Origin: Bryobacterales bacterium
Lineage (GTDB): Bacteria; Acidobacteriota; Terriglobia; Bryobacterales; UBA6623
DNA: 64,000 nt
Assembly (NCBI GenBank): GCA_965205595.1
Contig: CBDBHI010000056.1
Location: forward strand, 16,832-80,831
Direction of reading: 5' to 3'
Position numbers and translations under genes: made by a program. How positions within the stretch are numbered: the stretch's first letter is position 1; each line of letters starts with the position of its first letter. Under the pieces are notes generated by a model that was given only the letters and a program-made list of their open reading frames with translations, had not been told where the DNA came from and made no database searches. Positions 36,344 to 63,900 of this stretch are shown in pieces.

Positions 36344-36395
36344 TCTATTGTCCTGACTCTAGAGTTCGAGCGGGTGTGCGACAAATCTGTGATGG

Positions 36396-37835
36396 TCAGG
36401 CGGCTTTGACGCGAGTTTCCCAGTAGTCGTCGAAGCGATTGCTGAGGCGGGCGCAGCGCAAGGCGGTGATCGCGTTGGCGCCGCGCACGCTCCAGAACAT
36501 GCCCGAACGCTTCAGGCGACTTGCGATGAGCGTGCGACAGCCCGCCTCGATCACTCCCGAGCCCACAAACAATCCCTGCCGCCGGAATTCCCGATAACGC
36601 ATTCGCTCGGCGTTGCGCTCGAAGTAGCCCGCCTCCAAAGCGAGTTGATGCTGCAACTCCAGATTGTCGCTTGCGGTCCCTCGCAGCGTCGCGACGAGTT
36701 GCTCGATGCGCCCCGCGTCGAGCTTTTTCTGCAGCCGCCTCTGCCAACCGCCGCGACGCTTCTGTTGTTGGGGAAACAGCTTCGACGCCAGATCCCACAG
36801 ATGTTCGCGAGCGTGATACAAGTCAACGATCTCGATGGCGCCTGGAAAGTACTGCTGCGCAAGATTCCAGATCCAGGCCGCGCCGTCGCCGAGGATGACT
36901 TTGCGGCGCGCCCGGCTCCAGCCCCGTCGCCAGGCTTCGTTGAACAGGCGCGGGCCGAAAGCGGCGGTGTCCTCAATCGCGCCGCTATACGTGGTCGAGT
37001 CCTCGTCTCGAACCGGGCGGCCTCGCGCGTCGCGGCTCGATTGCGTGAAAACGCAGCCCAGTTTGACCTCGCGTGTGCGGGCCGGGCTACCGTTCTTGCC
37101 TTTGCGTCCGGTCGTTTCAGCGGCCGCAACAGGCACGCCCGTGCCGTCCATCTCGATGTAGAGAATCGGAATTTCCGCTCCGCATATCTCAGGGAGTTCC
37201 AGCTGCACAGCGCGCTCGATCTCGGCCTGTTCGCGCGCCGCGACGTCAGCGCCGATCGCTTCGGCTTCGCGCTCGACCGCCTTTGCCGTCAGCTCAATCC
37301 CGGCCAATTCGTCGAGTAACGCGCGGCCGCGGCCGAACGAAGTTTCGCTGCCGACCAGCGCCATCATGCGGCGCACGCTTGGCGAGTACTGCGTCGCTAC
37401 GACATCGAGTTCCTGGTCGCGCGCCGCAAAGCCGCTGCCGCAGTGGCCACAGTGATCATACGGTCGTTCGACAACAATCGCGCCCAGCATGGTGACGAGC
37501 TTCTTCGCGCGCTTGGCGGCGTAGCGCGCTTGTCCGCCACAGGCGCAGTGTTGTTGCGGTCCGTACGCCGCGTCGTCGTTCAGTAGCATCTCGATCAAGC
37601 TTGCGCCGGCTTGATGCAGGGCGTCGCGCGTCGCTTGCTCGACAGCTTCGAAATCGAGCGCGCCGCTGTTGCGACCTGCGGCGAACACGACCCGCAGCAG
37701 CCGACCTACTTCTTGAGCGACTTCTTGTTGGATTGCTTCGGCCGTTTTTTTTCCTGCGAACTTAGCTCTGTGTCTTCTTCCACTGGGCGCAAACGGCAGA
37801 TCGCGATATTCACCTCGACCAAGCTGCTGGTCCAT
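36396..37835 (-). CDS. ISKra4-family transposase (orfB)
   Basis: LGDGAAWIWNLAQQYFPGAIEIVDLYHAREHL and LFVGSGVIEAGCRTLIASRLKRSGMFWSVRGANAITALRCARLSNRFDDYW match the ISKra4-type signature as I remember it. Confidence 0.85.
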   Translation of the reverse strand: MDQQLGRGEYRDLPFAPSGRRHRAKFAGKKTAEAIQQEVAQEVGRLLRVVFAAGRNSGALDFEAVEQATRDALHQAGASLIEMLLNDDAAYGPQQHCACGGQARYAAKRAKKLVTMLGAIVVERPYDHCGHCGSGFAARDQELDVVATQYSPSVRRMMALVGSETSFGRGRALLDELAGIELTAKAVEREAEAIGADVAAREQAEIERAVQLELPEICGAEIPILYIEMDGTGVPVAAAETTGRKGKNGSPARTREVKLGCVFTQSSRDARGRPVRDEDSTTYSGAIEDTAAFGPRLFNEAWRRGWSRARRKVILGDGAAWIWNLAQQYFPGAIEIVDLYHAREHLWDLASKLFPQQQKRRGGWQRRLQKKLDAGRIEQLVATLRGTASDNLELQHQLALEAGYFERNAERMRYREFRRQGLFVGSGVIEAGCRTLIASRLKRSGMFWSVRGANAITALRCARLSNRFDDYWETRVKAA

Positions 37836-38110
37836 TGCTGAAACCGCCGAAATTCACCGATTTCACGTTTCGCCTTGCTCTGAGCGACGCGGCTGGGCAA
37901 GGATTCAGTCACTGTTTTACCGGCGATCTTGGAGGTGAACTGGGCACGGCCGGGATGGCCGCTCTCGCCCTCCTTCGCGCAATGGCAGGACGGCTTACCG
38001 CAGCGCTTTGTGGGGCTGCTAATGGACCCCGGACGAAAATCTCCGAACTCAACAAGCTGCCGCAGTAACTGGGCACGCTGGCGCCGGCACCGATCGAGGG
38101 AAGTGGTCAT
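37706..38110 (-). CDS. IS-encoded orfA, DUF6788-like zinc-ribbon protein
   Basis: RCGKPSCHCAKEGESGHPG...KTVTESLP...EIGEFRRFQQWTSSLVEVN resembles DUF6788. It overlaps orfB by 130 nt, with orfB in the -1 frame. An A8 run (T8 at 37745-37752) lies in the overlap. Confidence 0.65.
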   Translation of the reverse strand: MTTSLDRCRRQRAQLLRQLVEFGDFRPGSISSPTKRCGKPSCHCAKEGESGHPGRAQFTSKIAGKTVTESLPSRVAQSKAKREIGEFRRFQQWTSSLVEVNIAICRLRPVEEDTELSSQEKKRPKQSNKKSLKK

Positions 38111-38286
38111 GGGAAATCTCCTGTCTGAAAGTCTCCCATACTTGCAGATTAAGTTCCCCTGCCTGCTCCTCTCTCAAAACCTCACTTTCTCGTCGCACAC
38201 CCAGTTCGAGCAACGCCTCTATCCGAATACGAAGATACGGAGATACGGAATCGCGGTTTTGCGAGCCCGGGACTTTCCGTTCGCGG

Positions 38287-47104: not shown

Positions 47105-48948
47105 GGGCCGTGAAAGAACCCTCCCTGGCCGCTTGTTGGATTTTTTCGTGAGGTCCGCAGTCGCAATATGCTTTTCGCGCGATTGCGGCCCTGTTGTTGG
47201 CACTTGTCGTCTCGAAGGCCTTCAGGGCGCTCCCAAGGCCCGTCTTGGGCTCTTTTTCGGCCGTTTTCCGGCCTCAGGCGGGTTCTAGGCCAGCGCCGTC
47301 GGCAACGGCGCGCACCCTCCCTCAGGCTGCTGCCACACCAGCCGGATCCAGGCCCTCACGTTGTACGCCAACATCGCCCACAGTAACTCCGATCGCGCCT
47401 TCCGCAACCCCCGCACCCGAAACTTCCTCACCCCAAACCGCTCCTTCAACCATGCGTTCGGAAACTCCGCCAACTCCGATCGCCGCCGATACGCCTCCTT
47501 CGCCCGCTGCGTCTCCATCCACTCCCGATGCTTCGCCATCAGCTCGTCTTCTTCCGCCCGACTCGCCGTCCGTCCCCGCTCGTAACTCTTCGGACAACAC
47601 TTCAGCCGATATTCACAAACTTTGCATTCCCCACTTCGCTGCCTATACCAGCGGTATCTCCTCTTCCTCTTCGTCGTTGTTCCCCGGTATTGCAACTCTT
47701 TGTTTGCCGGACATCGAAACGTGTCCGTCTTTTCGTCGTAAATGAAAAACTGTGTCTCGAACTCCGGCTGGATCCCCGCCGCCCGCGCCGCTGCCGTCGA
47801 GCGCTTGCCCCGCTCCGGAGCCGGCGTCACGTACTCGATTTCTTCCGCTTGCGTCCTCGCGATGTTCGCTCGCGAGTTGTACCCGTTATCAGCCAAGACT
47901 TGCTTCGCCTTCTGCTGCAGCCGCCGCTCCATGTCCTCAAGCGTCGGCTTGAGTTGTTGCGCGTCCGAGGCGTTGTTCGTCAACTCCACCCCGACGACAA
48001 TCTTCTCCTTCGCGTCCGTCGCGAACTGCGCGTTGTAGCCCACTCCCCAGCCGCTGTTCGACTCGTGTTGCAGCCGCGCCTCCGGTTCCGTTTCACTCGC
48101 CCGCGCTTCGCTTTTCTTCTTCTTGCCGCCGCGGCCTTTCGCTATCCACCGCACGTCATCCAACGCTTCATTCAACCTCTCGACGCGCTCGCGATCCGCT
48201 CGCTTGCGCGCCGCTTGCCGCCGCTTGTTGCCGGCTTCGTCTTCCGCTTGCGCGCCCAACTCCTCGACCACCGCGTTCGCTTGCTCCAGATGTTTCTCGA
48301 TCGTTCCCCGCCGCCTCCGCGAACTCGTCGAACCTTGCGAGCGCAGCCGCCTGCCGTCCACCGCCAGCTGTTCGAGATCGATCAAGTTCGCTTCGCTCAA
48401 CACCGCCAACACGTTCGTGAACATCCCCTCCAGCGCTTCGCTTTGCGAAACCCGAAAGTCCGACGGCGTGTGGTGGTTGATCTTTTCCATGCCGCACAGC
48501 GACTGCAGTTCGGGACGGTACTCGCACAGCCGTTCGATCTCGCGCGCCGACGAAATGCCTTCGGAGTCGGCCCAGATCCAGACCGCCACGAGCAAGCGCG
48601 GGTCCCAGGCCGAGCGTCCGCCGAGGTCGCGCTGCGTGCGCAACCTGGGCGGCGAACGGGCGCAGATCGAGTTGGCCGGTCAACTCCCAAATCGCGCGCA
48701 CGCGATGTTGCGAGTGAACGAGATGCTCGACCTCGATCTCGCAAAATACTTTCTGGCGCCGATCGGGCCGCCGCAATTTCAACTGTTCAATCGGGATCGG
48801 CGGCACCGCCGAGGACTCGTTGCGGGGCCGTTGTTCGAGCTCAAGCAACGGCATCTGTTCGCCCATACATAAAAGGCGTCCGCGGCCCTTCCCCGGTTAT
48901 CCAAACGTTCCCTCTTCTTGATGCTTTGGCCAGGTTCTTTCACAGCCC
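47105..48948 (-). mobile_element. IS1182-family insertion sequence with 5-bp target duplication
   Basis: Terminal repeats GGGCCGTGAAAGAACC (47105-47120) and the reverse complement of GGTTCTTTCACAGCCC (48933-48948) match at 15/16. The direct repeat GTTAG lies at 47100-47104 and 48949-48953. Confidence 0.85.
47285..48866 (-). pseudogene. IS1182-family transposase with a +1 frameshift near 48640-48650
   Basis: The N-terminal frame reads MGEQMPLLELEQR...HLVHSQHRVRAIWELTGQLDLRPFAAQ. It continues in another frame as RTQRDLGGRSAWDPRLLVAVWIWADSEGISSAREIE...NAWLKERFGVRKFRVRGLRKARSELLWAMLAYNV. Confidence 0.8.
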
Positions 48949-48949
48949 G

Positions 48950-50176
48950 TTAGGGTGAGGGCACCGGCGTCGTCCGCGGACCTTCGACCCGGTGGTGCAT
49001 TTCTTCGTACGATGCCCGGCCCTCGACCATGTCGACAAGATCGTCGGGGTTGACGTCGATTCCAATAAAGTTTCGCGCGAATGCTTTGCCGGTAATGTAG
49101 TCCCAGCACTCTTTCTTGGTACGGAAATTGTCGACTTGCAATTCGACGCGGTTGAGGTCTGGGTCGGCGTAGTAGAACGACGTGGTCATACCGTGGTTCG
49201 TCGGCCAATACGGCAGGATGTTTTGCTGCTTAAGCCGCGCGTAGACGTTGACCGCGAGATCGCGCATGGTGGCGTATTCGAACGCGTAGTGGTCAAACCC
49301 GTACGTTGGCCCAGGCGCGGTGACTTTCTTTTCGCGCACGATCGCAATCACGCTTTGGGTCTTGTCGTATGAAAGAAAGCAAACGCGATCGTTCTGGAAC
49401 TGCACGTCGGCTGGGAAGACCGTTTGGTACCAGCGGATCATTTCGTCGTAGCGTTCGGTCTTGAGGATCGTGTGGGTCGGAGGAGACGGGATGCGAACCG
49501 GCGCATCGGCGTCGACCTTTGATCCGGCTCTCACTAGCGTCTCGGGATCGAGTGTTCCAACGCCGCTTCCGTCGACGAGACAGCCGTCGGCGCAGTACTT
49601 CGCCAGGTCTTTGCCGGATGCAGCCGCGGTCACTGATAGTTCAATATTCAATCCCGTTGGATCGTGATAGTGCATGGCGGTGATTGGACCCAGTTCGGTA
49701 ACGCGATGGGGTTGGATGCCGTTGGCCTTCAAGCGCTGATAGGTGTAGACGAGATCGTCTAGCGAGCCGTAGCCAAACGCCATCCGCTCGAAGCCGCCAA
49801 GGTCGGCTGGAAGGGCGCCCTGATTCGGGCGTGAGAAAAACGAGATACGGTGATGCTCTTCGTCGTAGGTCGCAAATGCGCCGCGTCCGGTGTGTAGCGC
49901 GACGCGCGTGCCGAGAACTTTCGCGTACCAGTCGAGGGTCTTGTCGAGGTCACGGGCGCGTACCGCGATGTGGGCGAAGGCAATTGGAGCAACGGCTGTT
50001 TCTTTTGCTGTAAGCGGCGAACCGGCCGCGGCTGCGGTCCCGAGTAAGGCAGCGCCTTTGCCAATAAAGTCGCGACGAGATAGGTTGGTGGGATCTTGCA
50101 CGTTTCGGTCTCCTGGTTTATCTGTGGGCAGAGTAGCATGTGCGACATGGCGATTCACGCTAGAATCGGTCTTCAA
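48950..50176 (-). CDS. TAT-signal two-domain VOC-family protein (glyoxalase / extradiol dioxygenase fold)
   Basis: SRRDFIGKGAALLGTAAAAG twin-arginine signal. Two repeats of the VOC pattern (FAHIAVRARDLDKTLDWY..., FDHYAFEYATMRDL...). Its stop codon lies in the IS1182 target duplication. Confidence 0.7.
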   Translation of the reverse strand: MKTDSSVNRHVAHATLPTDKPGDRNVQDPTNLSRRDFIGKGAALLGTAAAAGSPLTAKETAVAPIAFAHIAVRARDLDKTLDWYAKVLGTRVALHTGRGAFATYDEEHHRISFFSRPNQGALPADLGGFERMAFGYGSLDDLVYTYQRLKANGIQPHRVTELGPITAMHYHDPTGLNIELSVTAAASGKDLAKYCADGCLVDGSGVGTLDPETLVRAGSKVDADAPVRIPSPPTHTILKTERYDEMIRWYQTVFPADVQFQNDRVCFLSYDKTQSVIAIVREKKVTAPGPTYGFDHYAFEYATMRDLAVNVYARLKQQNILPYWPTNHGMTTSFYYADPDLNRVELQVDNFRTKKECWDYITGKAFARNFIGIDVNPDDLVDMVEGRASYEEMHHRVEGPRTTPVPSP

Positions 50177-50224
50177 TGAATTGCTATCCGACGACCGACC
50201 CGCAGCCGAGCCAGGCTAGTTTCA

Positions 50225-51460
50225 ATGGCAAATAACGGCAAACTGCCTTGGCTCGTCGTCTACCTGCTTTTCATCGCGATGGTGATCGCCTATATCCATC
50301 GCGTCGATCTTTCGTCTGCACTTCCTCTAATGTCGGACGAGTTTGGCTGGAGCGCGACGCAACTCGGCCAAGCGAGCTCCGCTTTTTTTTGGATCTACTT
50401 CATGCTGCAAATCCCCGCCGGCTACGCGACTGATCGCTGGGGTGTGCACTTTGTTTTCTGGGCCGGGTTCGTCATATGGTGCGGCGCAACGCTGCTGACG
50501 GCACTCACGACCGGCTTCGCAATGTTGCTAGGACTACGGCTTCTATTGGGGATCGGACAGTCGATCGTGACTCCAGCCGGGCTGCGTTATATCCGGCTGA
50601 GCTTCCCCGAGGAGCAGCGTGGCACGGCGGTGGGCGTCTACATGTCGGGAACGAAGGTCGGGCCCGCGGTGGGTTTCGTTGTTTGCGCCTATCTGTTGAA
50701 TGCGTTTGGCTGGCGCGGAATGTTCGCCGCACTGGGCATTGGTTCGCTGCTTTGGCTCATTCCATTCTTTATTTGGGTCAAGCGCGAGGACCCAGCGGCG
50801 CGGCCATCAACCGCTCAACCGGCCGACGCCGGACGCGCGGTTCCGACAAGCGAGCTCATGCGCAGTCCGGTCATTTGGGGCACCGCGATTGGCACGTTTT
50901 GCTACATGTATTTCGTCTACTACTGCATGACGTGGATGCCGACTTACTTCAAGCAGCAGCACGGCATGTCGATCAAGGAGCAGGGCTGGTATAGCGCGGT
51001 CGCGTTCGGAGGAATGGCGATCGTTATCGTCGCGGCCGGGCGAGCCGCCGACCTGCTGATCCGGCGTGGTTACGACGCGGTAAACGTCCGCAAGGGATTT
51101 ACGATTGCCGGATTTCTTTGCGCGTTTACGCAGACCATTGCGGCTTACACGGATTCGGTATCGGTGATGCTGTTCTTCGCCGTCTTCTCACTGTGCGGGC
51201 TTGGTCTCATGACGGCGAACTACTGGGCCTTGACGCAAACGCTGATTCCCGGTGGGCGCATCGCAACCGTGGTGGGTTTTCAAAACACCGCCGCGAACTT
51301 TGCGGGCGCCGTTTCGCCATGGATTACCGGATGGCTTGTTGACCGGACTGGAAATTTCGACGCCCCGATCCAGGCGGCGGCGTTTTGGCTTTTGCTGGGA
51401 CTGGCGAGCTATATTTTCTTGGTCCGAAAGAAATACGCTCCGCCGCTCGAAGCCGCGTGA
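50225..51460 (+). CDS. MFS transporter (anion:cation symporter / hexuronate-type subfamily)
   Basis: 12 predicted TM segments; the loop motif GYATDRWG and LLGIGQS are typical of the ACS subfamily. Confidence 0.85.
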   Translation: MANNGKLPWLVVYLLFIAMVIAYIHRVDLSSALPLMSDEFGWSATQLGQASSAFFWIYFMLQIPAGYATDRWGVHFVFWAGFVIWCGATLLTALTTGFAMLLGLRLLLGIGQSIVTPAGLRYIRLSFPEEQRGTAVGVYMSGTKVGPAVGFVVCAYLLNAFGWRGMFAALGIGSLLWLIPFFIWVKREDPAARPSTAQPADAGRAVPTSELMRSPVIWGTAIGTFCYMYFVYYCMTWMPTYFKQQHGMSIKEQGWYSAVAFGGMAIVIVAAGRAADLLIRRGYDAVNVRKGFTIAGFLCAFTQTIAAYTDSVSVMLFFAVFSLCGLGLMTANYWALTQTLIPGGRIATVVGFQNTAANFAGAVSPWITGWLVDRTGNFDAPIQAAAFWLLLGLASYIFLVRKKYAPPLEAA

Positions 51461-51474
51461 TCGCGGTCGCGCCG

Positions 51475-53151
51475 CTAGCGAACACTGCCGTCGACAACGA
51501 CTTCGACTAAATTCGGACCGTTGTTCGCGAATGCTGCTTCTAGAGCCGGCGCGATCTCGTTGGGCTCTGTCACTTTTGTCGCCGTGACACCGAGCGAGCC
51601 TGCAAGCGCGGTGAAGTTTATAGCGGGGTCGTCAAGATCCATCGCAATGAAATGGTCGCTTTTGTGGAAAGCCAACAGTCGTTGCTTCAGAATGCGGTAC
51701 CCACCGTTGTTGGGAATCACGTAGGTCATGGGCAGCTTGAGATGCGCGGCGGTCCACAGCGCCTGGATCGTGTACATCGCGCTGCCGTCGCCAATCAAAG
51801 CGCATACGGGGCGCTCGGGTTGCGCGAGTTGCGCGCCGACGGCGGCAGCCATTCCCCAGCCAATGCCGCCGCTTGCGAGCCCGTGATAGCTGTAGCGGTC
51901 ACGGTAGGCAAGCAGGTCGGGCAGGCGCGCGCCCGACGTTAGACCTTCATTTACAACGATCGCGTCATCAGGCAAAGCCTCGGCGAGCCGCAGCATCAGA
52001 TAGTCGGGGTCGATCGGGCTGGCGCGACATTTTTCGGTTGTGAGTTTCTCGGCAATGATGTCCCGCTTAGCCGACCAGTTGCGCGCTTTGAGAGCGCCGA
52101 TAGCCACTTGCGCACCGTCGGCGAGGGCTTGGCCGCCTTTTTCACGCAGTATGGGCGTCAACGCTCGCAACGTCTCTCTGACGTCCGCGCGCACGGCAGT
52201 CTCAGAGGAATAGTTCTTACCCATTTCCCAATCAAGCTGGCCAATCTGCATCACAGGCATGCCATCGGGTAAAGGCTCGATCTGTGACCAGACGGACATG
52301 CGCAATGCGTCGGCGCCGAGAACGATCATCAAATCGTGCGCCGCCAGAATCTCGCGGACTTGGCGTTGATCGCGAGTGAGCCCACCGAGGTAGCAGGGGT
52401 GTTCCGAGAGGAAATGCGCTCCGTAGGGGACGCTCTGTTGGTAGGCCGCCGCCCCAAGCGCTTCAGCGAACTCGGCAGCCTCGGCTAGGGCGTCTGACTT
52501 GACGACTTCGTCTCCGCAGATGATCACTGGCGCGGTTGCGGCGAGCAGACGATCGGCCAGTTGGTCGAGAACGTCGTCGGAAGGTCGGACGCGGGTATCG
52601 ACGCGCGTGGAAGCGCCGAGGTCGATCAGCGCTTCGTTGTTCAGAATGTCGCCCGGCAGCGAAATGAACACTGGCCCGGTGGGAGGTGTGGTCGCGATCT
52701 TCGCGGCCCGTCGCACGATGCGGGGTAAATCTTCGAGACGTGGGACCTCGACCGCCCACTTGACCAGCGGCTCAGCGATGGGCACGAGTGGGTCGTAGAG
52801 CATCGGCTCGGTAAGGCCGTGGCCGAGTTCCTGCTGCCCGGCGGTCAAGATCATCGGAGTGCCGGTAAAGCGCGCGTTGTAGAGCGAGCCCATTGCATTG
52901 CCTAGCCCCGGAGCAACGTGCACATTGCAGGCGACGAGTTCGCCACTCGCGCGCGAGAAGCCGTCGGCCATCGCGACGACAACCGATTCTTGCAGCCCGA
53001 GGACGTACGTCAGGTCGGGGTGGTCTTTCAGCGCATGCATGATCGGCAACTCGGTTGTGCCCGGGTTGCCGAATAGATGTGTAATGCCCTCGTCCTCGAG
53101 TAACGAGAGAAACGCCGAGCGGCCGGAGATTGGGGTGGAACCGGTTGCCAT
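51475..53151 (-). CDS. thiamine-diphosphate enzyme (benzoylformate decarboxylase / acetolactate synthase-like)
   Basis: N-terminal GITHLFGNPGTTELPIMHAL. ThDP-binding GDGSAMYTIQALWTAAHLKLPMTYVIPNNGGY. I prefer the start at ATG 53149-53151 (MATGSTP). Confidence 0.85.
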   Translation of the reverse strand: MATGSTPISGRSAFLSLLEDEGITHLFGNPGTTELPIMHALKDHPDLTYVLGLQESVVVAMADGFSRASGELVACNVHVAPGLGNAMGSLYNARFTGTPMILTAGQQELGHGLTEPMLYDPLVPIAEPLVKWAVEVPRLEDLPRIVRRAAKIATTPPTGPVFISLPGDILNNEALIDLGASTRVDTRVRPSDDVLDQLADRLLAATAPVIICGDEVVKSDALAEAAEFAEALGAAAYQQSVPYGAHFLSEHPCYLGGLTRDQRQVREILAAHDLMIVLGADALRMSVWSQIEPLPDGMPVMQIGQLDWEMGKNYSSETAVRADVRETLRALTPILREKGGQALADGAQVAIGALKARNWSAKRDIIAEKLTTEKCRASPIDPDYLMLRLAEALPDDAIVVNEGLTSGARLPDLLAYRDRYSYHGLASGGIGWGMAAAVGAQLAQPERPVCALIGDGSAMYTIQALWTAAHLKLPMTYVIPNNGGYRILKQRLLAFHKSDHFIAMDLDDPAINFTALAGSLGVTATKVTEPNEIAPALEAAFANNGPNLVEVVVDGSVR

Positions 53152-53352
53152 GTCCACACAAGGGTAGTACGGAATAGGCGGACGACACGCTTCAGAATGT
53201 GCGCGGCCTCGAGCCGTTGGCAAGCATCCTTCGCGAGTGCCTGCAATGCTTGGTCGCGTGTAACAGTAGGCCATTCATGTTTTCCTAAGAGATCCATTCG
53301 CGACGCTCCGCGGGTGCGCTCCGTTGCCGCGGAAGGTCTCGCGTTTGAGGCA

Positions 53353-53689
53353 GTAGAGTAGGGGAGGGTCCCGCAAGTGGGCGTAACCTCCCCCCTCGTC
53401 GAACCGGACTTGCGGATTTCCCGCATCCGGCTCTCCAACAAGCTCTCGCCTTGGGCATGCGCGGGTCGAGACTAGTGCGAGCGGTTCAGCTCCAGCAGCC
53501 CCTGGCGTTGGAAAAAGGAATACCAAGGCTCGTCCTTCGGCGGTCGAAACCGGTGCTGTCCCCGCCGTCGCAGATGTCGCATGAAACGCCACCGCAGGTA
53601 CCAGTCCAGCTCCCAGTAGGCACCCCGCGGATAGCCCCTCGAAAAGTAGTTCGCCCAACCTCTCATCTGTCGGTTTAGCCGCCCGATCA
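53353..53689 (-). mobile_element. group II intron 3' fragment (copy A): end of the RT maturase domain, domain V, complete domain VI
   Basis: It encodes ...[45 protein letters not shown]...ELNRSH*. Domain V is GAGCCGGATGCGGGAAATCCGCAAGTCCGGTTC (53433->53401). Domain VI has a bulged A and ends ...CCCCTACTCTAC at 53353. Confidence 0.75.
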
Positions 53690-53693
53690 CCAA

Positions 53694-55137
53694 GGGGCTG
53701 TGAAAAAACCTCCCCTAACTCGAGAATCGGGCGTAGCAAGCTACGCCCCTACAAATAACTTGCGTGTTATCAGCGCTGTAGGGGTGCGACATGTCGCACC
53801 CTCGGGCGACCGTAGGCTCGGCTACGCCGCGAGTTCGGCGGCGCGCGCCGCCGAAAGTTCCTCCTGCGCGGTCTCCATGTTGAAGTAGGCCCGTTCGGCC
53901 AGCTGCCAGCGTTCGTGCTGCTCGACCAGCAACGCGCCGACCAGCCGTTCGCACGAGGCCCGGTTCGGAAACACTCCCACCACCCGGGTGCGCTGCTTGA
54001 TCGTCTTCATCAGCCGCTCGGCCATGTTCGTCGACGTCAATCGCTTGCGATGGCTCTCCGGGAATCCCAAGACCGTCAGGCAATCCTCCAGGCCCGCGCG
54101 CAGCATCGCGGCCACTTTCGGCCGCCGCCGCTCCCACTTCTCCGCCATCTCTTCGCCGATCCGCAGACAGCCTTGGCGGTCCGCCGCCGCGAATACCGCC
54201 GCCAAGTCACGCAGCACTTCGCGGTACTCGGTATGCGCCACTTTGCGCGCGATCTCGCGTTTGAAATGCACGCGGCAGCGCTGCCACCGCACCCCTTGGA
54301 AGTGTTTCTCCAGCGCCGCCCGGATCCCTGAGTGCGCGTCTGAAATGACCAGTTTGACGCCCGTCAGTCCGCGCTGCTTGAGCCCTTGCAATACCGACCC
54401 CCAGGTCTCGAGCGATTCGCTGTCGCCGTTACGCCAGTCGAGTATTTCCCGGCCGCCCTCAGCGTTGAAGCCGATCACCACCAACACCGCTTCGCTGCTG
54501 ATCGAGCCTCCAGCACGAACTTTCTCATAACGGGCGTCGATCATCAGGTAGGGATACTCGCTCGTCAAGCGCCGCCCGCGCATCGCGTCCAGCTTCTCGT
54601 CAAGTTCCGCCGCGACGCGCGAAACCGTCATCGCTGAGATGTCGAGACCGCACATCTTCTCCAGAACCGTCTCGACGCGCCGCGTCGAGACGCCTTGGAA
54701 ATACATCTCGCTGCAAGCCACCAGCAACGCTCGTTCGCTGCGTTGCCAGCGGGCGAACAGCGACGGGTGGTAGGGCTCGCAATCGCGCACTTGCGGTACG
54801 TCGAAATGCAGTTCGCCGTTGCGCGTCTTGAACGTCCGCGGCTTCTTGCCGTTGCGCCGTTCCGCGCCGGCTCTCGATTCGTTGGTAGGGCTGCGCCCCC
54901 AGATGCTGGTTGACTTCCGCCTGCATTGCTTGTTCGATCAGGGCTGCGAGCAGCTGCTTGACTCCTTCGTCTTGTTGGAACAGCTCTTGCGCCAGTTCCA
55001 GGATCTTGTCACTGTGGTCTTGGGTCATCGTTGTCGTCTCCTCTAGACGGGTTGTTTGGTTCTTCCCATCGTGAGCGCCGACCGATGACCCGGTCTACTC
55101 CGCGTCAAACATTTGCCAGAAGTATTGTTACAGAACC
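53694..55137 (-). mobile_element. IS256-family insertion sequence (no target duplication)
   Basis: Imperfect terminal repeats are GGGGCTGTGAAAAAACCTCC (53694-) and the reverse complement of ...GTTACAGAACC (-55137), matching at about 13/20. Both flanks are group II intron sequence, but from non-contiguous positions. Confidence 0.7.
53822..55028 (-). pseudogene. IS256-family transposase with a +1 frameshift near 54860-54880
   Basis: The N-terminal frame reads MTQDHSDKILELAQELFQQDEGVKQLLAALIEQAMQAEVNQHLGAQPYQR. The expected continuation ERRNGKKPRTFKTRNGELHFDVPQVRDCEPYHPSLFARWQRSERALL...MYFQGVSTRRV is in another frame. Confidence 0.85.
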
Positions 55138-56714
<1,577 letters not shown>

Positions 56715-58326
56715 CGTCTTGTCCAATACAAGATGAGCCTGAAGGGAGGGGTGATTCCAACACAAGATGAGCCTGGAGGTAATTTGGGCAAGGTCGATTA
56801 GGAACAGGCAAACTGCGGGCGATGGGAGTCGCCGTGCAGCAAGCCGAATCACTGAGTCTCGATGAGATCGAGAGTTTTCTTGACGGGTGTGGGTCCGTCG
56901 AGTTCCAGGCCGGAAGTCGAGCGGATAAATACGCGCTCGTCGAAGGCGTCCTGAAGAGGCATCATTATGCCGACCAGAAGCGCTCGGTTAAAGGATTGTT
57001 GAGACGCTTCCTGAGCAAGCTAACCGGCTTAAGCCGCGCCCAATTGACTCGCCTCATCGGGCAGTTTTTGCGCGAAAAGTGCGTTCGGCCGACAGCCTAT
57101 CGAAGGCGCCGCTTCCCCACCAAGTACAGCCGCGCCGACATCGTTCTCCTGGCGCATGTCGACCAAGTACAGCAACGTCTCTCCGGGCCGGCGACGCGTC
57201 GCATTCTCCAGCGCGAGTTCCAAATCTACAACCGCAAGGAGTTCGAACGCCTTGCCGAACTGTCGGTGGGACACCTCTACAACTTGCGCAAACGCGCCGT
57301 CTACCGGCGACACAGTTTGCATCTCGACAAGACTCGACCGACACCCGTGGCGATCGGCGAACGCCGCCAACCCGAGCCGCGAGGACGTCCGGGCTACCTG
57401 CGCATCGACACCGTGCACTCGCCCGAACAGGAAGGTGAAAAAGGCGCCTACAGCATCAACGTGGTCGACGAAGTGACGCAGTGGCAGGCCGTCGGCTGCG
57501 TCCAACGCATCAACGAAAACCACCTCATTCCCTTGCTGGAAGGCCTTTTGGAACAATTTCCATTTATCGTTCGCGGCTTTCACTCCGACAATGGCAGCGA
57601 ATTCGTCAACCATCAAACCGCTAAACTGCTCGAGAAGTTGCGAATTGAATTTACGAAGTCTCGCGCGCGCCGTTCGAACGACAATGCCTTGGTCGAAACC
57701 AAGAACGGCGCGGTGGTGCGCAAGTGGATGGGCTACCAGTTTTTGCCCTCGGAAGCGACGCAGGCGATCGACACCTTCTACCGCCAGTGGCTCAACCCGT
57801 ACTTGAATTTTCATCGCCCATGCGCTTTCGCCAGCGAGCGCCGAGACCGCCGCGGCAAGTTGCGCAAGGTGTACGCCGAGTGGAGCACGCCGTGGGAAAA
57901 GCTGCTCAGCCTGCCCGCCGAGCAGCGCGGCCTGCGCGCGGATCGCTCGCTCAAGAAGCTCCAAGCGCGAGCGGACACTTGTTCCGACACCGAGTTTGCC
58001 GAGCAACTCGACGCTCAGCGCAACGAACTGCAACGCGTCTGCAAAGACCTCGCGATCTGCTGGCGCACGCGCTAGACAACGCCCCGACCCGAGGCGTTGT
58101 CGGCTCCTCCGGCCCACGTCCGAAGACGGCCGTGGGGTCTCGCCTGGGATGGCTGCAAAGGGGGATTGGGGTGCCGCCCCTTCCCCCTTATGCAATCCCC
58201 CTCACCCCGCCCTACGAAGCCACAAATAGCTGTAGCCGCCGACCTCAACTCACGCTATAATCCCCCTCACCCCGCAGCTGCTTCGCCTCTCTCCTTCAGG
58301 CTCATCTTTCAATTGGAAAAGAGGGG
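56715..58326 (+). mobile_element. rve-type IS (IS481/ISNCY-like), copy 2, inserted in group II intron copy B
   Basis: It has the same end architecture as copy 1. The flanks 56572-56714 and 58327-58378 are both homologous to contiguous intron sequence 58393-58590. Confidence 0.7.
56822..58075 (+). CDS. DDE integrase-core (rve) transposase, intact (paralog of 34360..35613)
   Basis: 417 aa. The N-terminal half differs from copy 1 at many residues. The C-terminal ~215 aa are identical. Confidence 0.85.
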   Translation: MGVAVQQAESLSLDEIESFLDGCGSVEFQAGSRADKYALVEGVLKRHHYADQKRSVKGLLRRFLSKLTGLSRAQLTRLIGQFLREKCVRPTAYRRRRFPTKYSRADIVLLAHVDQVQQRLSGPATRRILQREFQIYNRKEFERLAELSVGHLYNLRKRAVYRRHSLHLDKTRPTPVAIGERRQPEPRGRPGYLRIDTVHSPEQEGEKGAYSINVVDEVTQWQAVGCVQRINENHLIPLLEGLLEQFPFIVRGFHSDNGSEFVNHQTAKLLEKLRIEFTKSRARRSNDNALVETKNGAVVRKWMGYQFLPSEATQAIDTFYRQWLNPYLNFHRPCAFASERRDRRGKLRKVYAEWSTPWEKLLSLPAEQRGLRADRSLKKLQARADTCSDTEFAEQLDAQRNELQRVCKDLAICWRTR

Positions 58327-58392
58327 CGCATTCGACTCCCGCACCAGCCCCAGCGCTGGTTATGTTTTCCCTGCGCCGCGTGGCGAGAAATG

Positions 58393-58972
58393 CGGGCTAG
58401 CAAGTGGAATCTTTTGAACATCAACGGCTCTCCCTTCTGTCGCAATCAGCATGCTTGTCTGACTCCGTCAGCATGAAAGCGCCAGGGGCCCCTTCGCTCC
58501 ACTCGCATTACCGAGCTTCTTCGCTACTATGCGCCCCTCCGACTCCCGCACCGGCCCCTGCAAGGGTTATGGATTCCCCTCGCCGGCTTGACGACCTGCG
58601 CCTCTACGAGCGCGCAGCCCCCCTGCCGATGCAGGCCTCCCAGGTTCCTGACGAATCTTTCCACGCGCGCTGTCCGCTTCCACCCCGAAGAGTCCGCCGG
58701 CTGCTTGTGTTCGTTGCTTCACCGACGGTTGCAGGCTTCACCCTACGCGACAGGCTGGCCACTCTCGACTTGCTAACGAGGCTCTCGAACGCGGTTCACT
58801 TGCGTTACGGCTCACGTGTTTGCCTTCTCGGGCTTCGCCCGCCTCGGCCACCAACAGCAGTTACCCGCTGAAGGCGTCCTCCGCGAACGCCGAGTCGGCT
58901 ACGGGGGTGAACGAACGATTCCCACGATGAACTCCTTTCAGTTCACTAGATTCGCCAGACTTAGCCTGGCAC
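58393..58972 (-). mobile_element. group II intron 5' fragment (copy C): 5' end through the region just upstream of the RT start
   Basis: In minus sense it starts GTGCCAGGCTAAGTCTGGCGAATC at 58972. Its last ~143 nt repeat 56572-56714 with 4 differences by eye. It ends at GCTAGCCCG, where it abuts a 25-nt end fragment of the long-hairpin repeat. Confidence 0.7.
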
Positions 58973-58983
58973 TCCGCGCGCCG

Positions 58984-59031
58984 GCAAGCGGTTTCCTCGA
59001 AGGCATTGATCCCTTCGAGGAAACCGCTTGC
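58984..59031. repeat. perfect 20-bp stem / 8-nt loop hairpin next to the intron 5' end
   Basis: GCAAGCGGTTTCCTCGAAGG cattgatc CCTTCGAGGAAACCGCTTGC. In minus sense it lies 11 nt upstream of the putative intron 5' end. Confidence 0.9.
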
Positions 59032-59034
59032 TGG

Positions 59035-60084
59035 GGGGCCGCCGCCGCTGGGCCGGACGTGTGGGCTCTGCCTTTCTCCCTCGACCGGTTGGAACCCACA
59101 GGAGAAGCCTTCTTGGTCGCCCAGGGAGCGGGGGACCACAGCATCGCCGATGACGGCACCCTCGTTGTCGTCGACGTGCTGGGAGGAGGTCACCAACAGC
59201 TGATCTGGAGAGACCGTACCGGCGCGAAGTTGGGGGAGATCGGGAGGTCGCAGAGGGGAATCGGTCAGCCGGCCCTCTCACCCGATGGCCGGCGAGTGGC
59301 GGTGGGCGGGCAAGAGGACGCGTCCACGTCGGCCGACGTTTGGTTGCATGAGGTCGGCCGAGCAGTCACACAGCGACTGACCTTCAACCCCAGCTCCGAA
59401 AACTACCCCGCATGGTCGCCCGACGGCAAAATGATTGTGTTTCGCTCGGGACGTTCCGGGGCGGGCGACCTCTTCCTACGCCAAGCGGACGGGACGGGCG
59501 AGGCGGAACCGTTGGTAAGCTCACCGGTAACGGAGTTCGAGTCCTCTTGGTCGCCAGACGGGCAAAGCGTGATCTACGGCGCGAGGGACCCAGACACTGG
59601 TCAGGCCGACCTTTTCCTTATCAACGTTCGAGGAGGAGGCGCGCCCAAAGCGCTGACGCAGACGCCGTTCAGCGAGCGTGTCGCGGACATCTCTCCAGAC
59701 GGGCTACTTGTGGCCTATTGCTCCGACGAGTCGGGTTCCAACGAGATCTATGTGCGTGAGTTCGCTGCCGGCGGGGGCCGCCGTCAGGTTTCCGAAAATG
59801 GAGGGTGCCAGCCGAGGTGGAACGCCGACGGCCGCGAGCTGTTCTACGTGGAGGGCGAAACGCTGATGGCGGTGAGAATTACTACGCCCCCAGAGATTGA
59901 AGTCGGCCGAGTCGAACGTCTGTTTTCGGATCCGAACTTGCGAAGCGTGATCTGGAGTTACGACGTCTCGGCCGACGGCCGTTTTGTTACGGTCGAAGAT
60001 GTGTCGGTCGAGAGCGAATCACAGCCTGACGCCTCCATCCACGTCATCGAAAACTGGTACGAAGAGTTCCGGGATCGCAAGTAG
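59035..60084 (+). pseudogene. 5'-truncated PD40/TolB-like beta-propeller protein (C-terminal part of a larger protein)
   Basis: Repeats of the type PAWSPDGKMIVFRS..SG..DLFL, SWSPDGQSVIY and DISPDGLLVAYCSDESGSNEIYV, with a C-terminal IHVIENWYEEF. Upstream of about 59035 the ORF-track frame runs through the hairpin and intron RNA domains, so no genuine N-terminus exists. Confidence 0.7.
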
Positions 60085-60987
60085 CCAGAGCCAAAAGGGC
60101 TTAGGTCGAGTTCTCCCGATCGGTGTTGGTAAATCGCGTTTCGCCGAGGTTCCGCCCCGAGCCGGTCACCCCGTCGGAATCGTCCCGAATCCGGCGATTC
60201 GACCATTTTTTCAAAGCTACTGAAAATTTATTTCCGACACAAGTGGCGACAGGCCAGAATCTCTCGGAGGCCTATAAACAGGGCGTTAGAGCCATTTGGC
60301 GAGGGTTTCAGAAGGCCTTCGACGCATCGATTGAGGCAGCGTTTGTTGCCAACAGCTATTGCCTCGTTTCCTCTGAGGCTCATTGATCTTCTCCGACCGT
60401 AGTCCCGCTTTATGCCGCTGGTGGTCGTCGACAGGTGATTAGGCTATCTATCGGGGGCCGATGATGGACCGGGTCTCACGAGGAGCTAGGCAGGTAATCC
60501 GCATCTTGGCGTGGGAGGTCCGCTCGATCGATTAACTGAGCCGAGTCAGAAATCTTCGCCACCCGTGCACAGCACCTATTTCCTTCCAATCTAGAATTTC
60601 AAGAATTTCCTTGTAGGGGTATCCGTGTAGTGCGACCATTTAGACGAGACTCGTCGATCATACGTTCGTAGCATGCGCGCTGCGAGCGAGTTTCGAGAAC
60701 TAGCGACTATTTTCTAGAGGGGACGGCCACATCATGACTTCGGCTAGTGCGGGCGAAGGCGCATGCGGTCTTTTTGTTAGCGCCACCACAGATGATCGAG
60801 CTGTTGTAGCCGTCCCGGCCGATACCGCTCGAATCCTATCAGGTGGTGTAGATCGCGACTCGTCGTGCGCGAGCGGACGCACAAATCACCAACAGTTTTC
60901 ACACGCAGGCTCGACCGATGTCGGCTGTTTGTTTGGGTTGGCTCTTCAGTCGCGATTAGCAATCGCGTAGTCTTCTCTGGAGGAAAT

Positions 60988-63900
60988 ATGAAGAAACGGT
61001 TCGCCGGGCTCGCAGTGTTGAGCCTGTTGTTCGCTATGTCAGCATTCGGCCAGCAAGCCGACACTGCGGTCGTCGTCGGCACCATTGCCGACGTCACGGG
61101 AGCGGTTATTCCAGCCGTCGAGATCCGGCTCAATCACGTCAACACGGGCGCCACGTACACAGCCCAGTCAGATGAGCGCGGTTTCTACCGCACTCCGCCT
61201 CTTCGAATTGGCGAGTACAGCATGGAAGCCGAATCGCCAGGTTTCAAGCGCATGCAACGCACTGGCGTCAACCTAAACGCCGGCGATACCCGACAGGTCG
61301 ACTTGGTGCTGGAGGTCGGCGAAGTCACGGAGACGATTGAGGTCGTCGCCCAAGCGCCCTTGCTGCAAACGCAAGAGGGGTCGACCAGCACGGTAATGGA
61401 TAACCAACAAATTCTTGAGTTGCCCTTGAACGGACGCGATTACCTGCAACTCGCGCGCATTTCGGCCGGCGTGACGCCGCCGGCGCGCTCCGAGGTCGCC
61501 AACCGCCAAGGCGTCAGCGTCGGCGGATCGCAAGCGACCCAGGTTAACTTCCTCATCGACGGCATCGACAACAACAACCAGTCGATCGCCTCCCAAGGCG
61601 GCCAGAAAGAAGCGATCAAGCCGCAGATCGACGCGGTTCAAGAGTTTAAGATCCTCACCAACGCCTACTCAGCGGAGTATGGGCGCTCCATGGGCGGCGT
61701 CGTTATAATGACGACGAAGTCTGGGAGCAACGAACTCCACGGTACAGTTTTCGATTTCTTGCGGAACGAAAAACTGGACGCAAAAAACTTCTTCGTTCCG
61801 CACGAAGTGAAGAAGCCCCCGTTCAAACGCAATCAATACGGATTTGCCATAGGCGGCCCGGTCAAGAAGAACAAGGCTTTTCTGTTCGGCGATATGGAGT
61901 TCAGCGGCATCCGCGAATCGACGACGCGGGTGAATACGATTCCCAGCGTGATCGAGCGGACGGGTGATTTTTCCGGCCAGAGCGATATCGTCCGCGATCC
62001 GCTGACGACGAACTTGGAGACCAGGGCGCGCGATCCGTTCCCGAACAACACGCTTCCTGATAGTCGGATCGACTCGGTCTCGCGGATCACGCGCGATTGG
62101 TGGCCGACGCCGACGAACAGCGGGCGCACTCGGAACCACGTCTTCGTTCCGCCCCGGAACCAGGATCTAAACCGCTGGGACGTCCGTTATGACCAGAGCA
62201 TCGACGATACGAACAACTTTTACTTCCGCATCAGCGGCCAGCAGACCGACAACCTCCGCAATCCAGTTCTTCCGGACAGCGCGGATGGCCTTTACACGCC
62301 AGGCACCAACGTGGACATCACCAACCGCCAAATTGCGCTGGTCTACAACGGAGTCTGGAGCCCTAACCTGGTCGGCTCGTTTCGCACCGGCTGGAGCTAC
62401 ATCGACACTGGCAACACGGCGGAGCAAGATAGGCCCGTGAACCCGCTCATCGGGTTGGACATGGGCAATGGTCTTGACATCTCGACGCGGGGCTCAGGCA
62501 GATTCAGCCCTTCGGGTTTCCGGGACGTCGGACACTGTTGCTTCAACTTCATCGGGTCGCAAACTCGGCAGTTTTCGGGCGACATCACCTGGACGAAGGG
62601 CCGGCACACGATCAAGTTCGGGCACACCACCTACTGGATGCAGAGCCAGATCTTCAACGCCGGCTTCATCACAGGCAGGTTCGTCTTCGACGGCCGGTTT
62701 ACCGAAGATCCGGAAACACGCGCCGGCGGCGATTCGATGGCCGATTACCTGCTCGGCTTCTCGCGGGAAGTTCGCAACTCGAACCACCGGCACATGGCCC
62801 TGCGCGCACCATGGCTGCACCAATATGTTCAAGACGACTGGCGAGTCAGCAACAAGCTAACGATCAACCTCGGCGTACGCTACGAGCTGAGTTTGCCGTG
62901 GGTTGACAAGTTCGACAAGATCTCGAACCTCGATGTCGACACCGACTTGAATCAACCCAAGTTCGTCGTTGTGGGCGAGAGGGGGAGTGGGCGTTTCAAC
63001 CGGGCGCTCGTCACATCAGACACGAATAACTTCGCCCCGCGCGTCGGGTTCGCCTATCGCTGGCAGGAAGATACGGTCATTCGCGGCGGGGTCGGCCTCT
63101 TCTACGCCAACACCATGAATACCGGCGGCGGCGAATTCATGGAGACCAATCCGCCGTCTCACGTCAAGACGCAAATCTCCACGGACCGCCTCACACCTAC
63201 GATCAGCCTGCAAGCCGGGCAAGGAGCGGGTGCCTTGGATCCGCAAAACTCTCCCCCCCTAGTCCCAGGCTCGTTCGAAATCGACCCCCCATGGCCGGTG
63301 GCCGCGCAGTGGAACTTCAACATCCAAAAGCAACTACCGAACAACATTCTTTGGGAAATCGGGTATTTCGGCACCAAGGGAACGCACATCATCCGCAGGT
63401 ACAACCTGAACTTTGCGCGCCCCGGGCCAGGCAACCCTCTCACTCGCCGACGCTGGAGGAGCACTCTGTTTCCCGGAACCGACAATGTGCAAGTGCCGCT
63501 GTCGTTCTTGCACAACTTCCGCAACGACTCCAACTCGAACTATCACGCTTTGCAGACGAAAGTCGAGAAGCGCTACGGCAGCGGCGTGAGCTTCCTGGTT
63601 TCCTACACCTGGTCCAAAGCTATCGGCGACTACAGCTTCATCCCGGGCGAGGACCGAGGGATTGGAGCGAATTGGGGCGTGCAGAACGCCGAGAACCTTC
63701 ATGCCGAGCGCTCGCTATTGAATCAGCACGTCGCCCACCGCGCCGTGGCCAGCTATTTGTACGATCTCCCGTTTGGCAAGGGCCGAAAATACGGATCTGC
63801 CTGGGGAGGGGCCATGAACGCGGTCCTCGGCGGCTGGACGGTCGGTGGCATTAACAGTTTTATTACAGGCTTCCCGATGAACTTGTCCGTCCGTGGCAAT

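Follow-up and report, generated by a model that had tools for sequence, protein, structure and literature searches.

A hairpin-site mosaic of decayed group II intron copies, MITEs and insertion sequences in a Bryobacterales genome

The locus at positions 53353-58972 of the window (the whole stretch of 64,000 nt that was analysed, from Bryobacterales bacterium GCA_965205595.1, contig CBDBHI010000056.1, positions 16,832-80,831) is a genuine mosaic, in which decayed copies of group II introns, two small hairpin MITEs and two insertion sequences (IS) are patched together through short-homology DNA joints. The whole is ordinary though intricate mobile-element debris. Three parts follow one another. 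The 5' part is C-type and holds the start of MITE1, the middle is D/B-type and carries IS256 nt 1-1334, and an A-type 3' part comes last, preceded by the end of MITE2. Tentatively, we read the locus as what remained of a group II intron site of the hairpin-targeting kind after a head-to-tail array had collapsed. All the pieces listed in a preliminary description of this DNA were found, each a few bases at most from the coordinates claimed there. They are, with the exons on either side:

58975-59056, minus strand: 5' exon: hairpin (perfect, 20 bp) of a repeated target element, then the 9-nt spacer CGGCGCGCG
58393-58974, minus strand: fragment C, intron nt 1-566, with domains I-III and the first 20 IEP codons; 'C-type' lineage
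58374-58400, minus strand: left end of MITE1, CTAGCCCGCATTTCTCGCCACGCGGCG, its last 12 nt common to the D-type intron
58325-58385, minus strand: fragment D, D-type intron sequence spanning nt ~355/367 to ~428, contiguous with B in the allele free of the rve IS
56715-58324, plus strand: rve-type IS copy 2, 1610 bp, intact 417-aa transposase, ends judged from 10 other copies
55138-56714, minus strand: fragment B, intron nt 423-1992, with the IEP ORF, domain V, and domain VI cut off by IS256
53804-55137, minus strand: the first 1334 nt of a true IS256-family element (left inverted repeat GGTTCTGTAACAATAC) whose own right end is missing
53694-53812, minus strand: right part of MITE2, terminal repeat GAGGTTTTTTCACAGCCCC, overlapping IS256 at junction J3
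53353-53693, minus strand: fragment A (start corrected to 53693), A-type intron nt 1685-2025, with the IEP end, domain V, domain VI in full and the 3' terminus ...CUAC
53190-53352, minus strand: 3' exon (TGCCTCAAACGCGAGACC...), which supplies the second half of the repeated target element and precedes a ThDP-enzyme gene

Alleles of the locus in other samples

The same junctions recur in four further metagenome assemblies (ERZ25071132, ERZ25069191, ERZ26167216 and ERZ25074053), and three structural alleles of the locus occur among the assemblies. ERZ25071132, at 32x coverage, is collinear with the window over 14.7 kb at 99.7%. Misassembly, which the preliminary description had kept as the alternative, is excluded by these identical junctions from four other samples, one of them at 32x. 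An artefact in the form of a collapsed or chimeric repeat, or a tandem duplication in situ followed by divergence, would suit repeats that are 95-97% identical and the low coverage of some assemblies, but is barely credible given junctions shared as three alleles, the nearer relatives that A and B each have at other loci, and the foreign elements MITE1, MITE2 and IS256 at the junctions.

One allele (L090/L091) is without the rve IS and has D and B contiguous. In a further allele the first duplication is lost and C is fused straight to B, an arrangement that would arise most simply from recombination between the 145-nt repeats. The window and L091 differ at 26 positions, which cluster in 56108-55668, with none in the 1444-nt IS256 block. 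Copy 2 of the rve IS is 90% identical to copy 1 (34256-35866). It has no 4-bp TSD, the target dinucleotide GA being replaced by AATGCGCC, and three of eight other copies are also without a TSD. The element scores 61 against the cut-off of 224 of the IS481 family model NF033577; its rve domain passes (35.8 vs 32.6). Since D and B are contiguous in L090/L091, the rve IS is a late, strain-polymorphic insertion without a role in the mosaic.

Intron fragments and their target site

Members of this intron family sit in a repeated element, 9 nt downstream of its 20-bp hairpin, in L001, L089, L091, L096 and L097 as well as here. The arms of the hairpin (58984-59003 and 59012-59031) pair perfectly over 20 bp around an 8-nt loop, with a DNA fold z-score of -8.9, and the arm has no second copy within the window. 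Homology of the 5' exon to other alleles and other copies stops at 59039-59056. At two unoccupied target sites, L083 15207-15278 and the reverse strand of L089, hairpin, spacer and 3' exon run uninterrupted and the intron is precisely absent. The stem-loop does not have the U-tract of an intrinsic terminator, the spacer CGGCGCGCG being without a T-run. The 5' end of the intron had been placed at 58972; alignment puts it at 58974, and the spacer after the hairpin is thus 9 nt and not 11. This end reads GAGUG, which departs from the consensus GUGYG; in L001 and L044, both relatives, it is GUGCG. At 53353 the intron ends in ...CUAC (consensus AY).

Group II intron models recover the domain V/VI core twice on the minus strand. 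The Rfam model Intron_gpII (RF00029, gathering score 40) matches fragment A at 53353-53435(-) with 51.7 bits and fragment B at 55130-55193(-), where it is interrupted by IS256, with 43.2 bits; both matches pass. The best Rfam model for D1-D4, RF02005, reaches 38.6 bits in the window and 44.1 bits in L001, against a gathering score of 49. The IEP ORF (55230-56336, minus strand) scores 336.6 with TIGR04416 (cut-off 300). RVT_1 and GIIM alone were detected in it, with neither DNA-binding nor endonuclease domain, and full-length homologues of 455-465 aa end after the maturase domain. The nearest intact IEP found in the database search is just 73% identical.

There is no uninterrupted, splicing-competent intron at the site: the MITE1 fragment, the rve IS, IS256 and MITE2 all interrupt it, and fragment B has an in-frame IEP stop at 56387-56385. 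Judged from the sequence, the locus is without function, given its non-canonical 5' end, the stop codon in the IEP and the breaks in the ribozyme. The functional consequence is small: dead DNA upstream of the ThDP-enzyme gene. A twintron was considered and rejected, as there are no internal intron termini (D begins at nt ~355-367 and B ends at nt 1992).

Fragment C is 98.3-98.8% (about 98-99%) identical to L089, L093 and L096. Fragment A is 97.6-97.9% identical to L093 and L094, at other loci, versus 94.3% to B, while L089 and L094b match B in its 3' part at 98.1-98.5%. By these values A and B are each closer to copies at other loci than to one another, and in identity matrices every fragment has its nearest relative at a different locus. 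Between A and B, 6 codons differ synonymously and 6 non-synonymously. L093 has a C-type end (98.3%), an A-type end (97.9%) and both MITEs in a single copy. The similarity of B to L089 is itself mosaic, which shows gene conversion to be active in this intron family too. Orthology of L044 and L094 was tried as proof that MITEs spread by gene conversion and was discarded: their shared flanks are short target-element sequence only.

Duplicated segments, junctions and origin of the mosaic

The long imperfect duplications that had been reported to flank both IS are real. Positions 53380-53689 match 55138-55447 at 95.5% over 310 nt, 56571-56714 match 58393-58537 at 97.2%, and 58326-58378 match 58533-58585 at 77%. 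The 145-nt stretch is 95.8-98.6% identical across all copies, while the 55 nt upstream fall into two deep types that are 72-77% alike. The contrast of 97% and 77% therefore reflects uneven, site-specific conservation along the intron. The 52-nt piece was also tried as a fourth intron lineage and rejected, being contiguous with B in L091 and all relatives.

At the first joint (J1) MITE1 passes illegitimately into the D-type intron through the 12-nt microhomology CGCCACGCGGCG at 58385-58374, as seen in a three-way alignment. The preliminary description had instead taken GCTAGCCCG for a 9-nt microhomology joint; this is the normal MITE1 insertion junction, seen beside the full MITE1 in L089, L093 and L094, where the element occupies the same position, intron nt 566. 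Its recognition of the end of a long-hairpin repeat at about 58400-58374 was correct, and the matching repeats lie at 5237-5426 and 18310-18493. With these two and three intron copies, MITE1 is multicopy, 185-190 nt long, and has the features of a MITE; its DNA hairpin fold has a z-score of -7.7. It shares one position in both C-type and D-type backgrounds.

At the other joint (J3) the 9-nt microhomology CGGTCGCCC at 53812-53804 is common to IS256 and MITE2, again by three-way alignment. The "IS256" block is a chimera: its first 1334 nt match the true IS256 at 100%, after which MITE2 takes over, with ~110 nt of the MITE2 right end in place of the ~95 nt in which the true element ends. We therefore discarded the block as a natural complete IS, since L092 and L094 show the genuine right end, in good pairing with the left inverted repeat, and an 8-bp TSD. 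The transposase, broken into two ORFs of 142 and 322 aa, is recognizable as Mutator-type DDE (PF00872, E=3e-90; NF033543, 304 vs cut-off 150). The right end derives from MITE2 and no 8-9 bp TSD accompanies it; the reported lack of target duplications thus holds for both IS. A full MITE2 sits at the same position, intron nt 1685, in L093 and L094, where it likewise marks the A junction. MITE2 is 147 nt long with perfect 19-bp terminal repeats and a DNA hairpin fold z-score of -8.2; it fits the definition of a MITE, but with copies seen inside introns only it is no more than putatively mobile on its own.

One intron struck by two IS could not give this structure; as the preliminary description had argued, diverged intron copies were combined. 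Its figure of at least three copies holds less well: diverged copies did recombine, but two parents could suffice, the C- and A-type ends being linked in L093. Its proposed route, homologous recombination between IS256 or rve IS copies at different positions in three or more introns, is improbable. It would explain the lack of TSDs at both IS and in the three other rve copies, and the true IS256 of L094, which lies between A-type and B-type intron with an overlap of ~18 nt, could have this origin. For the rve IS, however, it is largely refuted by the contiguous D and B of L091; for IS256 it is unlikely, as the block gives way to non-homologous MITE2 precisely where the final 9 nt of similarity lie and not within IS-IS homology. 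C and D, moreover, are joined inside MITE1 and not inside an IS.

The route we favour, and infer from the junctions, is a three-copy tandem array. Several diverged intron copies would have integrated head to tail at one hairpin site, in this order because each new copy would land between the hairpin and the previous one. Two RecA-independent deletions, by slippage or template switching, would then have collapsed the array, each with one end within a hairpin-forming MITE: the first from MITE1 into the second intron, the second from IS256 into MITE2. Ends at non-equivalent intron positions would leave overlaps of ~200 nt and 310 nt that mimic long imperfect duplications. The rve IS arrived after the mosaic. 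Tandem integration of group II introns has been shown experimentally, with IIC introns recognising DNA hairpins (PMC12584367), and nested cycles of homing and deletion are known in Methanosarcina (PMC4424553). A JGI contig contains a natural head-to-tail junction ...CUAC|GUGCG between two diverged related introns; among the source genome's own loci there is no tandem array or junction of this family. The true IS256 at this locus sits at intron nt 1992, and a separate donor with IS256 there was found in none of the five assemblies, which favours an origin in situ. Against the array, copies bearing a MITE or the stop would need the IEP in trans to integrate, and the nearest intact one in the databases is the 73% identical protein.

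A patch from two parents fits the data equally well, L093 linking the C-type and A-type ends in one copy, though we hold it to be somewhat unlikely. Here an L093-like resident would have had its interior replaced by intron nt 367-1992 plus IS256 nt 1-1334 from a second copy elsewhere. The exchange would have been either a pair of template switches or a gene conversion, its illegitimate ends lying at the two MITE hairpins. That L093 carries both ends and both MITEs, that both joints fall in hairpin-forming MITEs, that the 26 differences from L091 form gene-conversion-like patches outside the IS256 block, and that MITE1 shares its position in C-type and D-type backgrounds all agree with such a patch; the missing nt 1992 donor and the two coordinated illegitimate switches required between distant loci do not. 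A single replication-based event is a rather improbable form: a fork would stall at the MITE1 hairpin, copy ~3 kb of a paralogous intron-IS256 locus and return at the MITE2 hairpin, via the 12- and 9-nt microhomologies. If true, it would be a natural bacterial MMBIR-like templated patch transfer between retroelement paralogues, with hairpin MITEs as switch points.

An event at the RNA level, in which the intron RT switches between two intron transcripts at the MITE hairpins during retrohoming and the chimeric cDNA integrates, appears very improbable. In its favour, all fragments run collinearly in one orientation, the switches fall within strong hairpins at which a reverse transcriptase would pause, and the junctions have microhomology. 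However, the recipient-type RNA would carry a non-canonical 5' end, a disrupted IEP and ~1.3 kb of IS256, and a search for an intact IEP of this lineage found none. Group II RTs switch at template ends, and internal copy-choice is, to our knowledge, not a documented mode of template switching for them, which also counts against this origin.

The locus is a base-resolved natural record of how mobile elements accumulate and erode in the large, IS-rich genomes of soil Acidobacteria. It holds a hairpin-homing intron family, nested MITEs and IS, two microhomology joints, gene-conversion patches and three alleles across samples. For annotation, it cautions that long imperfect "duplications" flanking an IS need not imply IS-mediated recombination or misassembly.

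Comparison with known systems

The IS256 of this locus has a transposase at the level of NF033543, as expected for the family, and in L092 the true copy shows inverted repeats that match, flanked by the 8-bp TSD TCCCGCCT. The window copy differs in its MITE2 right end, the lack of a TSD and the split transposase frame.

The targeting of the intron appears IIC-like, and its IEP is without an endonuclease domain. Like bacterial class C (IIC) introns, it is inserted a fixed short distance, here 9 nt, downstream of a DNA hairpin, and its IEP is confined to RT and maturase domains. Among solved structures, those nearest to P0003, a 73% identical full-length homologue of the IEP, are IIC RTs (GsI-IIC, E=5e-62, then 7uim). 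However, the hairpin here is no intrinsic terminator and belongs to a repeated, partly palindromic element, and RF02005 stays below threshold. The non-coding ribozyme sequence is ~640 nt, and the minimal IIC ribozyme is smaller. IIC introns have been described as recognising DNA hairpins (PMC12584367, PMC4424553).

As in the EcKTE56.groEL tandem and the nested introns of Methanosarcina acetivorans, copies that land head to tail, again and again, at a site for which the 5' exon is the chief determinant, and that are later lost by recombination (PMC12584367; PMC4424553), would account for the locus. Here, in contrast, no intact intron-intron boundary is present and the array is inferred rather than observed, and the deletions would be illegitimate, at 9-12 nt of microhomology inside MITE or IS, and not homologous.

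Finally, inactive intron fragments in or near mobile elements, and gene-conversion tracts between subgroups, are shared with Enterobacteriales and with the RmInt1 family of Sinorhizobium (PMC3522654; PMC5894124; PMC4181065). The present locus differs from these in its unusually dense nesting, with two MITEs, IS256 and the rve IS in one site, in junctions resolved to the base, and in three segregating structural alleles.

Components of the mosaic and its structural alleles

The pieces and repeats listed in the preliminary description were all recovered by Rfam, domain profiles and self-comparison of the window, with some boundaries corrected. On the minus strand, intron fragments C (58393-58974), D (58325-58385), B (55138-56714) and A (53353-53693) follow in this order, with an rve IS (copy 2, 56715-58324) between D and B and an IS256 between B and A. 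The group II intron models, run on the window as had been proposed, gave two significant domain V/VI cores.

Features of the mosaic
53353-53435, minus strand: group II domain V/VI core, Rfam-significant (51.7 bits)
55130-55193, minus strand: group II domain V/VI core, Rfam-significant (43.2 bits)
55230-56336, minus strand: RT/maturase ORF with RVT_1 and GIIM (TIGR04416 336.6, cut-off 300)
Minus strand: IS256-family transposase, divided between a 142-aa and a 322-aa ORF (NF033543 304, cut-off 150)
rve transposase: 417 aa, intact

Self-comparison of the window paired 53380-53689 with 55138-55447 (95.5% over 310 nt), 56571-56714 with 58393-58537 (97.2%) and 58326-58378 with 58533-58585 (77%). The rve IS copy 1 (34256-35866) has 90% identity to copy 2, and the arms of the exon hairpin are perfect over 20 bp. 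The locus is non-functional: its 5' end is GAGUG, the intron-encoded protein (IEP) has an in-frame stop at 56387-56385 and the ribozyme is interrupted four times.

An RT scan of species-representative genomes found no locus identical to the window, and detected three related introns (L001, L004 and L044; 85-90% at the protein level; L-numbers designate the compared loci) in the Bryobacterales MAG chromosome OZ252030.1. The full-length copy L001 (2025 nt) served as the coordinate reference for intron positions. Many further loci were obtained by exact-protein look-ups in the long-read metagenome assemblies ERZ26167216, ERZ25074053, ERZ25071132, ERZ25069191 and ERZ28763718, which evidently come from the same or a sister population. 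RT ORFs at least 90% identical to that of the window are present only as fragments (119-393 aa) and the closest intact IEP, of 465 aa, has 73% identity; therefore, the intron family is decaying in this lineage. An intact group II RT/maturase of 461 aa, found next to the third IS256 copy (5757-7142 in L100/L102/L108), has only 38% identity to the IEP of the window and represents a different, possibly active intron family of these genomes.

The window locus, with the genes for a ThDP enzyme and an MFS protein downstream, was found in four further assemblies.

Alleles of the window locus
L097 (ERZ25071132, 32x): collinear with window 48661-63358 at 99.7%, rve IS included
L098 (ERZ25069191): structure as in L097
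L090/L091 (ERZ26167216): mosaic identical in layout, without the rve IS; upstream flank diverges past window 59056
L096 (ERZ25074053): C joined straight to B, without the MITE fragment and the D duplication; rve IS at 53189-53193 instead

The junctions B/IS256, IS256/MITE2 and MITE2/A (MITE2 being one of two hairpin-forming MITEs nested in the introns) occur in all four, so misassembly, which the preliminary description had kept as an alternative, is excluded. An artefact or an in-situ duplication as the source of the mosaic is extremely improbable. The simplest reading of the L096 form is a secondary deletion between 145-nt direct repeats. In this allele a short target duplication accompanies the rve IS (L096 10147-11757), which lies in the 3' exon immediately upstream of the ThDP-enzyme gene. 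A strain-level rearrangement has its breakpoint at window 59056/59057, immediately upstream of the hairpin element: beyond it a PD40 beta-propeller ORF, whose N-terminal part looks spurious or truncated, is present in the window, L097 and L098, and a PQQ-propeller gene in L091 and L096. Another structural difference between genomes was seen in ERZ26167216, where a 5'-truncated C-type intron with MITE1, MITE2 and rve IS (L093, 3380-5025) adjoins sequence 99% identical to window 36372-38203; unlike this counterpart, window 36372 has no intron.

Nested elements and the two joints

A 145-nt stretch covering the end of domain III and domain IVa, IEP start included, is 95.8-98.6% identical to C and to B in all copies of both species. 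The 55 nt upstream fall into two deep types, mutually 72-77% alike: a C-type (window C, L089, L093, L096) and a D-type (window D, L094, L001, L004, L044). With two deep types upstream and a stretch conserved throughout, an extra lineage is unneeded for the contrast of 97% with 77%. Complete MITE1 (the "long-hairpin repeat", 185-190 nt) follows directly after ...CACTTGCTAGC in L089, L093 and L094, where the intron continues past it, and is nested at intron nt 566 in several copies. Thus GCTAGCCCG, previously read as a 9-nt microhomology joint, is an ordinary MITE1 insertion junction. The window MITE1 ends after ~27 nt. The final 12 of these, CGCCACGCGGCG (58385-58374), match D-type intron nt ~355-367 exactly, as L094 shows; this is the illegitimate joint J1 between C and D. 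Free MITE1 copies are found at window 5237-5426 and 18310-18493, and their terminal repeats (CCGCATTTCTC...) and CTAG/TTAG-like flanks suggest an IS5-type MITE. The second copy is adjoined by one arm of a 124-nt inverted repeat pair, 77% complementary (11097-11220 and 18156-18279). A direct repeat family with four copies of 65 nt occupies the left window edge (72-904).

The rve IS has the ends CGTCTTG...AAGAGG, as defined from ten other copies (99.6-99.9% identical). Five of eight other full-length copies have a 4-bp TSD and three have none; copy 1 (34256-35864) has a clean one, GGGA. Copy 2 (flanks 58325-58332 and 56708-56714) is an aberrant insertion. It has no 4-bp TSD, and in place of the target GA stands AATGCGCC, which repeats in inverted form the flank ATGCGCC across the element. 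Since the L091 empty site reads GGGAGTCGGA/GGGGCGCATAG, D and B are one continuous intron segment, and the rve IS, formerly seen as a probable recombination partner, is a bystander. Its subfamily is probably active, because one assembly holds at least 10 copies with 99.6-99.9% identity.

The true IS256 element was seen in L092, L094 and L099-L108, where the inverted repeats of its right and left ends pair well; in L092 it has the 8-bp TSD TCCCGCCT. The window IS256 is a chimera. Its nt 1-1334 are 100% identical to the true element, and past the shared CGGTCGCCC (53812-53804) it consists of the right ~110 nt of MITE2, an element of 147 nt with perfect 19-bp terminal repeats, GGGGCTGTGAAAAAACCTC. 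In L093 and L094, MITE2 is at intron nt 1685 with the junction ...CACAGCCCC/TTGGTGATCGG, identical to "IS256/A" of the window; therefore, the A junction was inherited from a MITE2-carrying intron lineage. The junction B/IS256, at intron nt 1992, marks a genuine insertion of IS256, and the novel event is J3, which joins IS256 nt 1334 to MITE2. Since perfect identity extends over 1334 nt and the switch comes only where the similarity runs out, homologous IS-IS exchange at J3 is improbable. The preliminary description had derived the mosaic from recombination between diverged intron copies, probably through IS copies inserted at different positions; homologous IS-IS recombination of this kind is unlikely as its origin. 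Of template switching, its other proposal, the form carried out by the RT is very unlikely. All IS256 copies have the transposase split into overlapping ORFs of 142 aa and 277 or 322 aa (window 54600-55028 and 53822-54790); this frameshift is either programmed or a shared inactivating one. In L094 (7074-8700) an inverted true IS256 lies between A-type and B-type intron sequence, with a ~18-nt imperfect overlap in place of the 8-bp TSD. It repeats the phenomenon on a smaller scale and could stem from IS-mediated exchange.

Intron lineages and the origin of the mosaic

Alignment of the intron copies, also proposed earlier, gave A, B and C close relatives at other loci. In the 3' region A clusters with L093 and the L094 sequence L094a (97.6-97.9%), and B with L089 and the other L094 sequence, L094b (98.1-98.5%). 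Identity between A and B is 94.3% overall and falls to 88.8% over the first 125 nt. C clusters in the 5' region with L089, L093 and L096 (98.3-98.8%). The middle of B is itself mosaic, with 98-100% identity to L089 in most 100-nt windows and down to 92% or 73% elsewhere. Of the differences between the window and L091, 26, multi-base blocks included, lie within 56108-55668, a stretch of ~440 nt in the RT gene; the 1444-nt IS256 block next to it has none, and the ~2.8 kb between 53485 and 50700 have 7. This clustering points to gene conversion among copies, and 55668-56108 looks like a tract received from another intron copy.

In both microhomology joints, one side or both lie within a hairpin-forming nested element (fold z-scores of -7.7 for MITE1 and -8.2 for MITE2). 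We tentatively favour a route in which diverged intron copies would integrate head to tail at the hairpin site, the array then collapsing through two illegitimate deletions. Integration resting mainly on the 5' exon yields tandem copies experimentally (PMC12584367). Also in favour of the array is a JGI contig in which ...CUAC is followed directly by GUGCG of a diverged related intron; against it, no head-to-tail array of this family was found among the loci examined. Surviving arrays at hairpin sites, if real, would favour collapse. The main rival, an ectopic patch or template switch into a resident copy resembling L093, is less probable, on the unlikely side. L093 has a C-type 5' part and an A-type 3' part, with MITE1 and MITE2, all linked in one copy. 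An intron of the D/B kind at another locus, carrying IS256 at nt 1992 with the TSD GTTACGCC, would, if real, favour patch transfer; no separate donor with IS256 at nt 1992 was found among the loci from the other assemblies, which counts for the array. In an IS-rich genome, the mosaic is an intricate but ordinary result of nested mobile elements and illegitimate recombination.

Target site and comparison with group IIC introns

In the window and in L001 of the other species, the intron lies between the 5' exon (hairpin and CGGCGCGCG) and the 3' exon (YGCCTCAAAC...); in L089 and L093 this is partly so. Both exons are contiguous and intron-free in L083 (15207-15278) and on the reverse strand of L089 (2226-2437). 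Homing of the family thus takes place 9 nt downstream of the hairpin in a repeated, partly palindromic element. On one side of the palindromic hairpin of L089 lies an intron, and the site on the opposite side is empty. L044 and L094 have in common a second target type, CCTTTACAGTCG/CGGCTCCGATTTTG, where an inverted flank is also present.

Group IIC introns recognise DNA hairpins (PMC12584367; PMC4424553). The window family differs from them in that its target hairpin has no terminator U-tract. It is like them in its hairpin-adjacent target, and a putative IIC member, the closest solved RTs being those of IIC introns.
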